A stretch of 64,000 nt of DNA from an uncultured Gammaproteobacteria bacterium (GTDB taxonomy: Bacteria > Patescibacteriota > Microgenomatia > UBA10105), in NCBI GenBank assembly GCA_964412165.1, contig CAYPMW010000005.1:2576-66575 (forward strand), written 5' to 3'. Shown here piece by piece: positions 33,001-51,000 of the stretch; within the stretch, counting starts at the first letter, position 1, and every line of letters begins with the position of its first letter. Position numbers: made by a program.

Positions 33001-36000
33001 TCGAGACAGAAGGTATATCGGAAGACCTCTCGGTTCGCCAGTATTGTACGATTTGGCTAATTATCAAGGATTATTTGATATCACACCGAAGCCTGAAGTG
33101 TTTGTAGCGCTACTGACCCGCAGTTTGTCTTTGCGGCTTATTTATGATTATTATCGGGATGGGCTCATGCGGGTTGAGACGTTACCTGAATTACAAGAAC
33201 TGTGTACATTATTTGACATGGCAGGTCCGCAAACTGAGGCCGAATTCCAAGAATGGGTTCGTATCCAAGCAGGGGCACGAGCACCCATCAGATCTATCAT
33301 CGTGTATGAAACCGCCATGTTTGATTTGATAGGAACCATACTGAGGGAAAGGCAAATAAATCTGGACGAACTGCCTCCCTTTTTAGTCGATTATGTATAT
33401 TATGGTCAAACATTGAGAGATTTTAGCGATGTCAAACCAAATGAAAAGTATGAGGATATAACGATGGAAGCCAATAAGCTGGTGGACTTACTCGGAATTC
33501 CTAGAGAAAGTATGTTAAACGAGATTATACTACAAATTGCCACAGTTGAGGTTTTACAGCGTTTTTATGGCCTTCAAGGCATAAAAGAAGAAGAAGACCG
33601 AGAGCGGCTGATTCCAAAACATATTGTATCAAGCCGTACATTAATCGCCCAAAGCGTATTGGTAGTTCCGAAATTTTCGACAAATAGAATCGTGCGTGAA
33701 AAAAGATTGAGCGCGTATTTAAGAAAGGAGTGGAGAAAAAACAAAGATCCATTCGGCAAACGAACACTCCGGGATTTTGTATATCCTCAAGAAAGTTGAA
33801 TTAGTTCGTGACGATTTGCCGTTTTTCTACTCGAATTGTGCCTATGCGAGTTTCATTAAGCAGGGTGGTGTTTTCTCTCACCCCTTTGAGCCACTGATCC
33901 TGATATGAATAATTTTTATCTGGTTCAATGATCAGGAATCTTATAGGTTCGCACGGTCGTTGGGGAGATGTATACGTATCTTTTCCTGGAATGAATAGAT
34001 CAGGTGATCCTGGAAAACTTGAATATTCACAGGGAACATATCCGTATCTCTTGATCCCATACCACCAATAAAGATATTGGTATGGATAATCATACACAGA
34101 GGGTAAATAGGAGTACACGTAAAATCCCTTACCAGAGCTTTGGTTATACGTCCACTCGATGGCTTTCAACTCATTTATAAGAAGACTTGCGTCGTCTGAA
34201 GGCGAAATATATTCTATATAGCGTGTACCAAAAAATACTAAGTGTCCAGTAATAATGGGAAGAAGGAGTATAATCCGCACTTGAATAGGAAAAGTATAAA
34301 GTATAAGCAGTAAAGATATAAATATCAGCGGCGAGATATACACCGTATGCCAAGGATGCCAACCAGTATTACTGCCAAACCAGAAAAACGTGAGTACAAC
34401 TAAGGTGATGGTGAGGAGGATAAACTTCGTCGTAAATTCTTGACGAAACCGGAGTAAAGCCACGCCTGAAACCACACTGTAAATAAGAATTCCCAGGAGG
34501 GGAAGTTGTGGTAATACACTTTCCCCTAGAAGCGTACTATATGCTGTTTGTAACGTGCCAAACTGTGATTTTGAGAGAAACGATTGGTTAGATGACTGGT
34601 GATGTTGGATTGCACGAAGTTGTGAAAAATTTGTTTCAAGTTCAGTGATCAGATGGGGAATGAAAAACAGCGATATGGTAGCGATTGCTACTACTACTGA
34701 TTGAATTTTAATCCGTCGCTTGTATATACCAATTATACATACCAGCAGGAATAGCCCAAAGAGAGGAGGGAAACTCGCGAGCTCTGTGTGAAACGTCAGT
34801 GCTACTGCGACTGCTCCGATAATGAGCCAACGTCTATGCCCGGACCATGATTCAAGTAAAGCGAGAATAAGAAGAATGGCCAATGCAGGTAATGGATGTG
34901 GGTTGAAGGAATAACGTGAAGTATCATAAAATTGCCACATGAATTGAAGTAAGAGGACGATACATAGTGAATAGCGGTAAGATATATAGAGCGACAAACA
35001 GATGGCTAAGACAGTTGATACTGCCAGATTTAAAAGTACCATTTGGATCACAGCTCCAATCGGATGAAAGCGAGCGAAAAAATACGCAATACTCACCCAG
35101 TAATACCAAAGAGGACCGTTATAGAAACCTAAGATGCTCGTTTCTGGACCTTTTAACACCAGAATTTTTGTCACCAGAATTTCTCTCGCCCAGACGGCAT
35201 TTTGGGCCTGATCCATGGTGAAGTAAAAATTGTTATTTCGGAGTGGTATGGAATGAAGAAGTAAACTTATTGTTAGAAGAACGATAAGATACGTATAAAA
35301 TGCTCGTTTAGTCATGATTCGTCTGATGTTATAAGCTTTTCATACGCCGATTTTACTTGTATTGTTTCATACGGTATTATCTCATAAAGGAGGTAAACTT
35401 ATGATTCAAGGAATTGAAGGCATACTTTTAGGAAGTTCAAATGCTCAAACTCTAGCCCACTTTTACCGAGATGTTGTCGGGTTGACTGTCACGTCTGAAG
35501 CGGAAATGGGGGAGGAAAACCAAAACTTGTACGTATTTGGGTTTAAAGGGTGTGCGCTTTACATTATAGATCATTCTGAGGTGAAAGGGAAAAATAAGCA
35601 ACCTGGAAGGCTCATTTTTAATCTTGAAGTCGACGATATTGAAAAAGAGGTGGCACGGTTGAAGAAACGAGGTGTCAAGCTCGTCCAGGATACCTATCAC
35701 GTCGAAGGTTACGGTCTTATAGCTACTTTTGCTGATCCTGATGGTAACTATTTTCAGCTCGTGAAGACGCGGCCTTAATTTTCCAAAAACTAAATAGCTC
35801 TGACTGAAAGGGCGATACAAAGATCAGAAATTAGTCATTTCCATACGTATCGGCAGTTGATTTGACGTGAGTGAGGCAAGATTTAGCGAAAGACAGCGGT
35901 AATGAATTGCAGATTGTTTGAGTTGAGGTGTTTCCGTTGGGGATATTTTGGTAAACTAACTCACCAGCAGCACCACTAATACACACGGCCCGATCAGAAA

Positions 36001-48000: not shown

Positions 48001-51000
48001 AATCATTGCAAGCGCTATGGTTGGCGGGGTTGCTACAGAAAGTTTCGCACGTTTCAACAGTACCACAGCCCAATTTTTCTTTGGCCCTCGTAAGAAACTC
48101 ATCATCTGGAGCGTGTATTTTATCCGGTTCATAAAATCCTTTGGTTTTAGCATATTCAGCACACACAAGATAATTCACCGGATCATCGCAGTAATCCATA
48201 CAACTACCCAAATCCGCGCAGCTGCCTAGTTCAGGGATAGGGAAAGTGACGTTGCCAATAGGTGAAGCTCCCGGGACTGGAGAGGAAGTTTCAGTACCAG
48301 GGGAAGCATCCAGCGTAGTTTCCTGTGCAAATGTCGATCCAACTGCAAAAGCAAGAAGAACTGCCAAAATACTCCACAAAATCCACGTTTTTCTCAGTGT
48401 GTATATATAATTCATTTAGCCTTTTCTTTTAAGTTGAGAAACGGACTCTTTGTTGTATCAAATGGATTGACGTACTGGGATTCTCGATTAAATGGATTAT
48501 TGTATTCCTGTTTAAGACTTACGGTTGGTTCTTGGGTTTTCGTCAGTTGCTGTTGAAACTGTTTGCCGTATTTAGTGTTTTTAAATATATACACTGTCAA
48601 AAGTGCGATAGAGGTGAGAATAAGGACAACTAAAAAAAGTAATTGAATGCGCGGCCGACGCAAAAAATGCGTGCCGGAAGTCTTAGTATGCGACTCATCC
48701 ATACGAAAGTAATGCTTACTTTCATTATCAATAATTTTTTTTGTGGTTGTCAAGGGGTAAATTTAAATACGAAAGGATTAGTTGATTAAACGCGAGAAAC
48801 AGTTAGTTTGAAGATGCTCGTCAAGCTTCCCACAAAAAGTTTTCTTTTCTTCAAGTGGAATGACATCTGAAATAATTTGACCAGTGAGGTTTTGAAAACA
48901 GACCGTTCTGGCTGGTTCTGATAGTTCCTTGCAGACATTGATGCCCTGGTCTCTGCCGCCGACGGAGTAGTATGCTCCGGCATTGACAATGATACATCCA
49001 TCCCGCCAAAATGTTCCAACTTGTTCACATAGTGTAAATACCTTGGTGATATCGCCGTTGGTAACGGGATGTATTTGTCGAGCAAGATTATCAAAACACC
49101 ACGCCCGGTGTTCGGGGTTGGGTATCCGTTCACAGTCCTGGGCAGTTTTTGGTATATCTCCCTGGTTCATTTGATATATCCGTGCAGCCTGATTGAGCCA
49201 GCAGCCTTTCTGGTATTTTTCCCCAAAGGCATTGCAGGGAAAATATGGATCATCATCTTTGAGCCAGTCACGTTTCGGTTTCGTATCTTTGCCCCAATCA
49301 TGGACGCCAAACAAGTTTTCCATAAATGCTCCGTTATGGCACGAGCTTAACGCCTCAGGAAATAAAGTTTCTTTTTCATATAACTCATCACACGTTTTTA
49401 GACCGTGTGATAAATCATAACTAAAAAGGGCGAGGATTGAGTGTCCCGCAGCATGAACACACTGGAAATACCGTACAGATGATTCTTTACATTTATCTGT
49501 CATTTGCTTAATAACATCGATTCCTTGATCCGCTGCCGCTTCAATAATCACGCCATGATAACAAGCAAAGAGAAAATAATCTTTACATCGAAGTATGGCA
49601 TCAATCCCGTATTTTTGGTATGCGTAAAAGCCAATTTGGTGCATTACTAGATGGCCTTCACCGGTATGAGGTAGGGGGGAATGTTCAAGTACTTCCAGCG
49701 CTTCTTCAACACCTACCCGTTCCGCTAATCTTCTCCCCGCGTTAAGCCGAGTAGTTTGGTTGTCAGAGAGTAAATCCTTCATTTCCGGAACGTCGTTTAC
49801 ATTTATATCAACTGCTTTGACATCTGGGCTCGGAGAAGGAGAAGGTGCTGCGGAAGGTGTGTTATGAGTTCTGAGTGGCAGAAAATATGCTACAAGTAAA
49901 ATACTGACAAGCAACAACAATTTTTTTACCATACGGAAGGTAGGTAGTTTCATATGCTAGCAAAATGACGAAGGTCGTTCAAGAGAGTAACTTTTAGCCA
50001 AACAACAAAGGATAGTCAATGCGGCTATCCTTTGTTGCAAAGCTCCTCTACGATAATTCACTCACTACTACTGTCCTGTAATGTTTTATTAGCTTATCGT
50101 GAGAGAGTAGCCTAACTATAGAGAGAGCATATGTGTAATCAAAGTACAATAAGTAAGAAGCAGGTAAGGAGAATCATGGTAACTCCTTCTTACCTATCTA
50201 TTACAAGATTATTTTAAGTATATTACATAGGCTCCCTACTGTTATGTATTAAGTATGTGAGGGCGGGTTTGACCATTATGTAATAGAGTGTATGTGCTCT
50301 AATCATATGTATCAGACATATTCTATATGGAAATAATTTGACAGAAGAGAGTGAGAGTGTTAATTAAGCAGGGGAGGAAGATGTATGAGGTTAAGTGGGC
50401 AAAATAAATTAGAACACGTACTCAAGCAAATACCCCAGGGAATTACCATCCAAGATACTTCCGGCAATTTTCTCTATGCCAACGACCGCGCAGCGCAAAT
50501 GATCGGTTTTAAATCAACGAGCGAACTGGTGCAAACTTCTCCGCAGAAGATTTTAAAAAGATTTGTATTGTTTAATGAATCTGGTCAAAGACTTACTAAT
50601 GACGAACTTCCCGGACGACGGGTTCTTAAAACCAAACGCCAGGAAGAGGCAATCATCCGATTCCGTGCGGGAGATTCAAGCACTGATCGTTGGTCATACG
50701 TCATCTCAAAACCATTTACCAACGGTACAGGAGAGCTGATTGGCGTAGTCAATACGTTTCAGGATTTGACCAGATATAAACGATCAGAAGAGGCGCTTCG
50801 GATTCTAGACGAGGTGGGTACAGTATTGTCTTCCTCAGTTAATTATCATACTCGTCTCAAACAGCTGGCCCGGCTCGTTGTTCCAAAAGTTGCTGATTGG
50901 TGTGCAATAGACATGTTAAATAACGATCACTTAGAGCGAGAGGTGGTAGTGCATCCTGACAAACGGAAAATGCATTATGCTCAGATACTCATGAAGAAAT

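Follow-up and report, generated by a model that had tools for sequence, protein, structure and literature searches.

Known systems and the locus under study

Disulfide-bridged helical repeats are exemplified by the cysteine-rich proteins of Helicobacter and the Sel1-like repeat proteins, which are built from ~36-amino-acid (aa) helix pairs held together by disulfides. Tyrosine-rich proteins that are cured by copper or heme oxidases include the mussel foot proteins, the extensins, and the Bacillus spore-coat proteins with the CotA laccase. FtrB is a Cys-less cupredoxin that binds Cu2+ via Asp118 and His121 and oxidizes Fe2+, and its D118A mutant loses Cu2+ binding (PMC11966278). In the present study, we analyzed a block of six genes at positions 35831-49953 (minus strand) of a 64,000-nucleotide (nt) stretch of DNA, hereafter the window, which is taken from contig CAYPMW010000005.1 of GenBank assembly GCA_964412165.1. 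The encoded system relates to known Cys-less cupredoxins and to disulfide-bridged helical repeats, and it has the potential to reach beyond them. Our leading reading, which we hold tentatively, is that the block specifies an extracytoplasmic, disulfide-stabilized, copper- or other metal-dependent envelope system of a Microgenomates bacterium, a member of the candidate phyla radiation (CPR), and that it comprises two adjacent units. The metal-binding, disulfide-stabilized extracellular assembly proposed in the original prediction for this DNA remains the best reading. The genes, taken from a listing of open reading frames (ORFs), and their parts are as follows.

48778-49953, minus strand: gene C, 391 aa; N-terminal membrane anchor or putative signal sequence, then a Pro/Ser linker and a single Cys-pair helical-repeat module (residues ~95-391, DNA 48781-49671)
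48412-48753, minus strand: small transmembrane (TM) protein, 113 aa, TTG start; one TM helix and an extracytoplasmic tail
45869-48415, minus strand: Tyr-rich protein, 848 aa; a putative signal peptide, a Cys part with seven 4-Cys modules of the form C-x5-C-x3-C-x6-8-C (located by regular expression) and two C-x11-C pairs (residues ~60-415, DNA 47171-48238), a YYTP/SYGTP repeat region (residues 441-830, DNA 45926-47095), and then a short amphipathic Trp/Leu tail
43229-45778, minus strand: gene B, 849 aa; a putative signal peptide, a cupredoxin domain without Cys (residues 30-118, DNA 45425-45691), a linker predicted to be disordered, and two modules (module 1, residues 187-486, DNA 44321-45220; module 2, residues 505-848, DNA 43235-44266)
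37260-42833, minus strand: the giant, 1857 aa; three helical units that contain DUF5667 and begin near residues 78, 435, and 941 (the best Pfam match covers residues 78-170, DNA 42324-42602), Cys-rich inserts between these units, and a Cys/Ser/Gly/Tyr-rich C-terminal region (residues 1291-1857, DNA 37263-38963)
35831-37204, minus strand: gene A, 457 aa; putative signal peptide ending IYA/HG (a slash marks the predicted cleavage site), Cys-less cupredoxin domain (residues ~22-113, DNA 36866-37141), and, after a linker, a single module (residues 195-457, DNA 35834-36622)

The module shared by A, B, and C resembles the Helicobacter Cys-rich and Sel1-like proteins in being made of probably exported alpha/alpha repeats of ~35-36 residues, each with a Cys pair that is expected to bridge the helices. 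The cupredoxin domains of A and B are Cys-less, as are FtrB and EfeO's N-terminal domain (Cup-I/Cup-II; PDB 7wgu and 8vuk), but their motifs are HPxH and H-D-H-x3-H, they are fused to a Cys-pair solenoid, and no M75 domain is associated with them. FtrB uses Asp and His for Cu2+ and the Glu cluster E84/E86/E93 for Fe2+. The domain of B has an invariant H104-D105-H106 and H110. Relative to type 1 blue copper proteins (plastocyanin, amicyanin, and the plastocyanin-type protein encoded at 54663-55103 of the window), the ligand Cys is replaced by Asp and the spacing of His and Met differs. With the oxidase-cured Tyr-rich systems the locus shares a secreted Tyr/Pro/Thr-rich repeat protein that is encoded beside cupredoxin-fold proteins, but this likeness is an analogy only, and no tyrosinase, laccase, or peroxidase domain is present here.

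The coordinates and common orientation of the six genes agree exactly with those given in the original prediction, and the paralogy it proposed was likewise borne out: the first half of B aligns with A at 35% identity (E 4e-101), B carries the Cys/His module twice, and C, which is a single module, is similar to both B (E 1e-19) and A (E 8e-19). When the six-frame translation was searched with profiles, four modules and two A/B-type cupredoxin domains were located in the window and no further ones. All five proteins other than the TM protein begin with a hydrophobic stretch followed by small-x-small sites (IYA/HG, ITA/RS, TFA/QE, and AIA/AY), and the AlphaFold2 models of B and C show an N-terminal helix and then a disordered linker. 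These features fit the prediction of five signal peptides, except that the N-terminus of C seems rather to be an anchor that stays uncleaved, with a Pro/Ser linker behind it. Every mature secreted protein has an even number of Cys residues (16, 32, 34, 46, and 14), and the five proteins are probably exported and disulfide-bonded. Disulfide machinery of the DsbA/MdbA and VKOR types is widespread in CPR bacteria (bioRxiv 10.1101/335083).

Databases already list these proteins, though under no label other than hypothetical or "cupredoxin domain-containing". The exact 848-aa Tyr-rich sequence is absent from the protein collection, and the deposited B is 841 rather than 849 aa long; public gene calls apparently use other start codons for these two proteins. 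In the literature that we surveyed on DUF5667, CPR cupredoxins, and CPR cysteine-rich proteins, neither the module, nor the gene cassette delineated below, nor DUF5667 is described.

A Cys/His helical-repeat module with an invariant His/Met cluster

It had been proposed that the secreted proteins belong to no recognizable family. For the Cys/His module this holds, as neither Pfam nor NCBIfam gave a match (E <= 0.1) and a profile search gave no sequence relative in the PDB. Cupredoxin_1 (below threshold, in A and B) and DUF5667 (in the giant) were the only matches in Pfam and NCBIfam scans of the six proteins. The AlphaFold2 model of the C module is all-alpha, with a predicted local distance difference test (pLDDT) score of 90.9 and a predicted template modeling score of 0.84, and the B model has a pLDDT of 84.8. 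Foldseek returned only designed armadillo proteins and importin-alpha (E ~1e-3, template modeling score ~0.22) and no specific structural neighbor. The likeness to these ARM/HEAT proteins, which are cytoplasmic and without disulfides or a His cluster, is one of repeat architecture only. Cys residues in the module follow a regular period, C-x8-17-C and then mostly x21-26 (up to x35), and there are 7-10 repeats of ~35 residues per module. This periodicity, taken with the all-alpha model, points to a disulfide-stapled solenoid of two-helix repeats.

The module was aligned with 46 single-module relatives that are ~20% identical to C, whose residue numbering is used here. Despite this divergence, H101, H105, H133, H167, H171, and M211 are 100% conserved, together with most Cys columns. 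E212 is kept in 41 and E137 in 35 of these relatives, and D189, D235, Y112, and Q255 are also strongly conserved. The same set is invariant in both modules of B and nearly so in multi-module relatives. The invariant residues fall in the motifs HxxxH, CxH, CxHxxGH, and FME, which map to four helices at the solenoid's N-terminal end. An HExxH sequence in module 2 of B might be taken for a zincin motif, but we rejected this assignment because the other modules, with HDLAH and HLVMH at this place, do not retain the Glu.

The superfamily is large. Among 1.84 billion representatives of clusters at 50% identity, 6,258 match at E <= 1e-3, and 1,298 do so at E <= 1e-30. The cupredoxin-plus-module architecture of A is common among the matching representatives, and some proteins have up to eight modules. 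In 39 long members, Cupredoxin_1 occurs in 10 (E <= 0.001), and the sole other Pfam match is to the related plastocyanin/azurin family, in one member. Relatives that were scanned separately include fusions to GH3 with LRV/HEAT, to FG-GAP, to Laminin_G_3, or to a C-terminal cupredoxin. In the 3580-aa relative P0245, a GH3 glycoside hydrolase domain and LRV/HEAT repeats come after eight modules, an example of the use of the module in very large multi-domain surface proteins.

A cupredoxin fold in which Asp replaces the copper-ligand Cys

The N-terminal domain of A and B forms a Greek-key beta-sandwich that is superimposable on solved cupredoxins, and the PDB sequence matches of the B profile are cupredoxins only. 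Many B homologs also have a precomputed PF13473 match. The domain has no Cys, and Asp105 aligns with the copper-ligand Cys of amicyanin and of the window plastocyanin. We therefore assign the domain to the cupredoxin fold without a type 1 site, and the type 1 His-Cys-His-Met (or Leu/Gln) ligand set is indeed absent from the A/B domain. Likewise absent are the hallmarks of multicopper oxidases (at least two cupredoxin domains, four HxH-type motifs, and a trinuclear cluster) and those of type 3 copper proteins (six His on a four-helix bundle, or a Pfam Tyrosinase or Hemocyanin match).

W64-P-A-S, H70, P71, H73, H104, D105, H106, and H110 are invariant in the 46 B homologs, and among 32 diverse cupredoxin-plus-module (A-type) relatives, HPxH is retained in 31 and HDH in all 32. 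The association of this domain with the module takes other forms as well: the module relative P0271 carries a C-terminal cupredoxin fusion, and stand-alone A/B-type cupredoxin matches lie near module genes in loci L010 and L032 (tblastn hits only).

A mature N-terminal His after a signal sequence recalls histidine-brace copper sites. Such a His, following a signal sequence ending A/H-S, is predicted in 45 of the 46 B homologs, the sole exception being the window B itself (A-R-S). Paralog A has IYA/HG, and an N-terminal His occurs in only 8 of the 32 wider relatives. We did not adopt a histidine-brace reading, given the Arg at this site in the window B and the low frequency of His among the wider relatives.

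Conservation divides the block into two units

To compare the locus with others, one genome per species was scanned, and the 32 other loci obtained were analyzed by tblastn and ORF clustering. The order C-TM-Tyr-B is kept in 13-19 of these loci, most of which are titled as metagenome-assembled genomes (MAGs) of Microgenomates. In 19 loci a Tyr-rich homolog sits immediately upstream of B, homologs of the small TM protein occupy the same position in 13, and C, located upstream of the Tyr-rich and TM genes, is 57-72% identical across loci. This synteny with B establishes C-TM-Tyr-B as a conserved cassette. The giant and A are beside B in none of the 32 loci. On the basis of these sequence comparisons, the block is best described as two units, namely the C-TM-Tyr-B cassette and a separate, lineage-restricted giant-A unit.

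The original prediction of one or two operons rested on short spacers and an ATGA overlap. Both are present, the spacers from C through A being 24, -4 (the ATGA overlap of the TM stop and the Tyr-rich start), 90, 395, and 55 nt. A single unit is not borne out, as giant-A stands behind the 395-nt spacer and is missing beside B in the other loci. Co-occurrence in related genomes, which had been named as a test of the system, is accordingly strong for C-TM-Tyr-B, but it fails for the giant, A, and the flanking kinase, regulator, and plastocyanin genes.

B has more than 300 homologs, and among the 120 matches listed almost all are full-length, at 44-59% identity. Those with names are called "cupredoxin domain-containing protein" or "hypothetical protein", and they come from Levy-, Davies-, Blackburn-, Chisholm-, and Buchananbacteria and from other Microgenomates or Patescibacteria MAGs. 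Many species-representative third-party MAG records that carry a Microgenomates-type cassette (L005, L008, L011, L012, and others) are titled "uncultured Gammaproteobacteria" or "Saccharibacteria", and these titles look unreliable.

Several kinds of genes recur around the cassette. A Crp/Fnr-type regulator (cNMP-binding plus HTH_Crp_2) is encoded between C and the TM gene in seven loci (e.g., L011, 6121-6756) and is absent from the window. Class A penicillin-binding protein (PBP) genes are near the cassette in five loci and in the window; in L011, L013, L022, and L028 they lie 2-6.5 kb downstream of B. PMT_2-like GT-C glycosyltransferases are neighbors in four loci and adjoin the cassette in L016, L026, and L028. 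The histidine kinase and regulator pair and the plastocyanin-type gene that flank the block in the window are not conserved neighbors in the 32 loci. A functional link to the kinase and regulator was dropped because the pair is not syntenic elsewhere.

Giant homologs number two and occur in metagenome loci L037 and L038 only. In L038 (contig Ga0155428_137, 9935-15444), the next gene after a 1705-aa giant homolog encodes an A/B-type Cys-less cupredoxin of 129 aa that stands alone (HPTH...HDHLNP), an arrangement which indicates that the pairing of giant and cupredoxin recurs at least once. The same contig encodes a CopC-plastocyanin fusion (2516-3364) and a PMT_2+TPR glycosyltransferase (3033-4829). 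The window giant exceeds the gathering threshold of DUF5667 (PF18915), with three matching stretches, an E of 3.1e-45, and 153 bits, and it contains the Cys-knot motifs CPxGYxW...C and C-x6-GC...CxC.

The 395-nt spacer ahead of the giant contains promoter-like elements of its own. Promoter and terminator scans performed no better than on shuffled sequence. Two identical 11-mers were located.

49979-49989, minus strand: TACTCTCTTGA, overlapping a -35-like TTGA, 26 nt upstream of the C start
43116-43126, minus strand: identical copy of TACTCTCTTGA, inside the 395-nt B-giant spacer, upstream of the giant

This 11-mer is possibly a shared promoter or operator element, and the second copy would fit a giant-A unit with a promoter of its own. 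The match is not statistically compelling by itself, since at least three matches, with one mismatch allowed, occurred in 9 of 100 shuffles.

The Tyr-rich protein and the small TM protein

Full-length homologs of the Tyr-rich protein number ~150, all of which are unnamed or hypothetical. Six of these were compared over their whole length and were found to have in common the putative signal peptide, the 4-Cys modules, the YYTP/SYGTP repeats, and the Trp/Leu C-terminal tail. In the window protein, residues 441-830 are composed of 24% Tyr, 23% Pro, and 22% Thr. Neither the N-terminal half of the Tyr-rich protein nor the giant has a sequence match in the PDB. Alignment of homologs of the small TM protein revealed a conserved triple motif, YKNPF-x6-YVNPF-x3-YKNPF, in its outer tail.

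Proposed function and competing explanations

We infer that the His/Met/Glu cluster of the module and the HPxH/HDH site of the cupredoxin domain are putative metal sites, with copper the most likely metal. We base this on the ligand chemistry (His/Met/Asp/Glu), on the recurrence of cupredoxin fusions, and on the copper-protein genes nearby (plastocyanin in the window and the CopC-plastocyanin fusion in L038). In the resulting model, C would be a membrane-tethered single solenoid module, and the small bitopic protein would serve as a tether that displays three Y-x-N-P-F motifs outside the cell. B would combine a Cys-less cupredoxin with two solenoid modules, and the Tyr-rich protein would be secreted with its seven 4-Cys modules and ~390 residues of repeats. 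The metal-loaded proteins would act in redox or metal handling outside the membrane, and the solenoid grooves may dock two kinds of extended Tyr/Pro peptides, the tether's NPF tail and the YYTP fiber. In a speculative last step, oxidative modification or cross-linking by the metal centers could turn the Tyr-rich protein into a surface fiber, sheath, or holdfast. The giant and A would form a second unit of like kind, in which a fibrous Cys/Tyr-rich surface protein is paired with a cupredoxin-module protein.

A more specific version of this model, which we consider quite unlikely as it stands, would make the solenoid an extracytoplasmic enzyme domain of a new class that uses copper (possibly binuclear). 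Together with the Cys-to-Asp cupredoxin, it would cure a YYTP fiber resembling a mussel foot protein into a holdfast or sheath by which Microgenomates cells attach to their hosts, with the NPF protein as the membrane tether.

Three observations weigh against the metal-dependent envelope system that we tentatively favor. First, the Pfam Cupredoxin_1 (PF13473) scores of A (25.2 bits) and B (25.8 bits) do not reach the gathering threshold of 27. Second, the fusions of some module relatives to GH3, FG-GAP, and Laminin_G domains fit adhesion or carbohydrate roles. Third, no Tyr-rich neighbor is present at the module genes of L032 and L034 (titled Jorgensenbacteria and Doudnabacteria) or of L029, L033, and L035, so that an enzyme-substrate link to the Tyr-rich protein cannot hold generally.

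The strongest competitor, which is possible though doubtful, is that these are purely structural or adhesive surface proteins. The solenoids would be scaffolds for peptide, glycan, or peptidoglycan, the His residues would be structural or would contact ligands, and the cupredoxin would be a metal-free, degenerate spacer. The fold resembles only ARM/HEAT and designed helical repeats, and relatives with up to eight modules or with the fusions just mentioned suit such a role, as do the class A PBP genes found close to the cassette both here and in five other loci. The conserved linear NPF and YYTP motifs resemble docking peptides, and the Helicobacter Hcp/Sel1-like proteins are also ~36-aa disulfide-bridged helix pairs. 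However, the strict invariance of five His and one Met at ~20% identity would be unusual for a scaffold, the cupredoxin retains invariant His and Asp residues in the copper-binding loop of blue copper proteins, and its repeated independent association with the module argues for shared chemistry.

An unlikely possibility is that the locus serves the acquisition or homeostasis of Fe, Cu, or Zn in the manner of EfeO/FtrB, with the cupredoxin oxidizing or passing on the metal and the His-rich modules binding or storing it. The precedent of FtrB, which binds Cu2+ by Asp/His and is a ferroxidase (PMC11966278), lends itself to this view, as do the CopC-cupredoxin fusion near the giant homolog in L038 and the His-, Met-, and Glu-rich ligand set. 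Nevertheless, no Ftr1/EfeU-type permease was found in the window flanks or among the conserved neighbors of the 32 loci, the cassette and its conserved neighbors likewise contain no ABC importer or P-type ATPase, and the sole membrane component is single-pass. Moreover, one conserved site per ~300-residue module is poorly suited to storage.

Still less probable is a role in extracytoplasmic defense against oxygen or oxidants, in which a copper oxidase-like module receiving electrons via cupredoxins would reduce O2 or reactive species at the surface of a fermentative cell. The Crp/Fnr-type regulator inside the cassette in seven loci would suit this role, as would the plastocyanin-type gene ~5 kb from the block and the nearby MsrA and glyoxalase genes in the window, and the cupredoxin fusions are also compatible with it. 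On the other hand, we identified no electron donor pathway, the module resembles no known oxidase, and this role leaves the tightly linked Tyr-rich protein and the NPF tether unexplained.

The original prediction noted that GC content is higher in the block than in the flanking DNA and suggested that the locus is either acquired or biased in amino acid composition. The elevation is real but only modest (0.43-0.50 in the block, 0.33-0.47 upstream, and 0.41-0.47 downstream). GC at the third codon position (GC3) is 0.38 in the block versus 0.37 +/- 0.06 elsewhere in the window, whereas GC at the second position (GC2) is 0.44 versus 0.36, reaching 0.54 in the giant and 0.59 in the Tyr-rich gene. 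With the excess at position 2 and GC3 unchanged, the cause is amino acid composition (Pro, Ser, Thr, Gly, and Ala) and not foreign DNA. Horizontal acquisition of the block was ruled out by a GC3 equal to that of the rest of the window, so of the two suggestions only amino acid bias survives. That the locus is an acquired island or an artifact of repeat-driven spurious ORFs is thus scarcely credible, for although its GC is locally higher and many alternative-frame ORFs overlap it, these codon-position data, the full-length homologs of B (>300) and of the Tyr-rich protein (~150), and a gene order kept across many Microgenomates MAGs refute this explanation.

The metal-dependent envelope system that we tentatively favor would matter because much of bacterial diversity belongs to the CPR, whose envelope and attachment biology is poorly known. 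Its signature domain spans more than 6,000 clusters and has no Pfam model, solved structure, or assigned function. If the His/Met cluster and the Asp-substituted cupredoxin do bind copper, they would constitute a new extracytoplasmic metalloprotein architecture, and organisms seen as simple fermenters would be investing in surface redox chemistry. Even as a scaffold, the locus would offer a defined set of surface proteins and linear docking motifs for studies of host attachment.

Flanking genes and other features of the window

The histidine kinase/OmpR-type regulator flank and the plastocyanin ~5 kb away are present as originally described, and so are the long spurious antisense and alternative-frame ORFs. 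No tRNA or Rfam elements were found in the window. Further features are listed here.

46024-46881, plus strand: long alternative-frame/antisense ORF
45859-46455, minus strand: long alternative-frame/antisense ORF
37244-38086, minus strand: long alternative-frame/antisense ORF
37403-37921, plus strand: long alternative-frame/antisense ORF
29636-30238, minus strand: MsrA
33801-35315, minus strand: 504-aa polytopic membrane protein
35362-35778, plus strand: glyoxalase-family protein
50385-52775: PAS/GAF histidine kinase
52801-53556: OmpR-type regulator
53629-53988, plus strand: MazG-like protein
54026-54643, plus strand: RNaseH-like protein (PF04308)
54663-55103: plastocyanin-type protein, ~5 kb from the block
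55110-57491 and 57569-59896, minus strand: two tandem class A PBPs (transglycosylase plus transpeptidase)
60062-61039, plus strand: Colicin_V+CAP-domain membrane protein

The glyoxalase gene, which is on the opposite strand, marks the downstream limit of the minus-strand run. The 504-aa polytopic protein encoded directly beyond the block has no Pfam match and has a 38%-identical homolog near B in L023; it may be a glycosyltransferase for Thr/Ser-rich proteins. A transmembrane CAP-domain family has been reported to be almost unique to CPR bacteria (bioRxiv 10.1101/335083), and the Colicin_V+CAP protein of the window fits the description of this family, in agreement with a CPR origin of the window.

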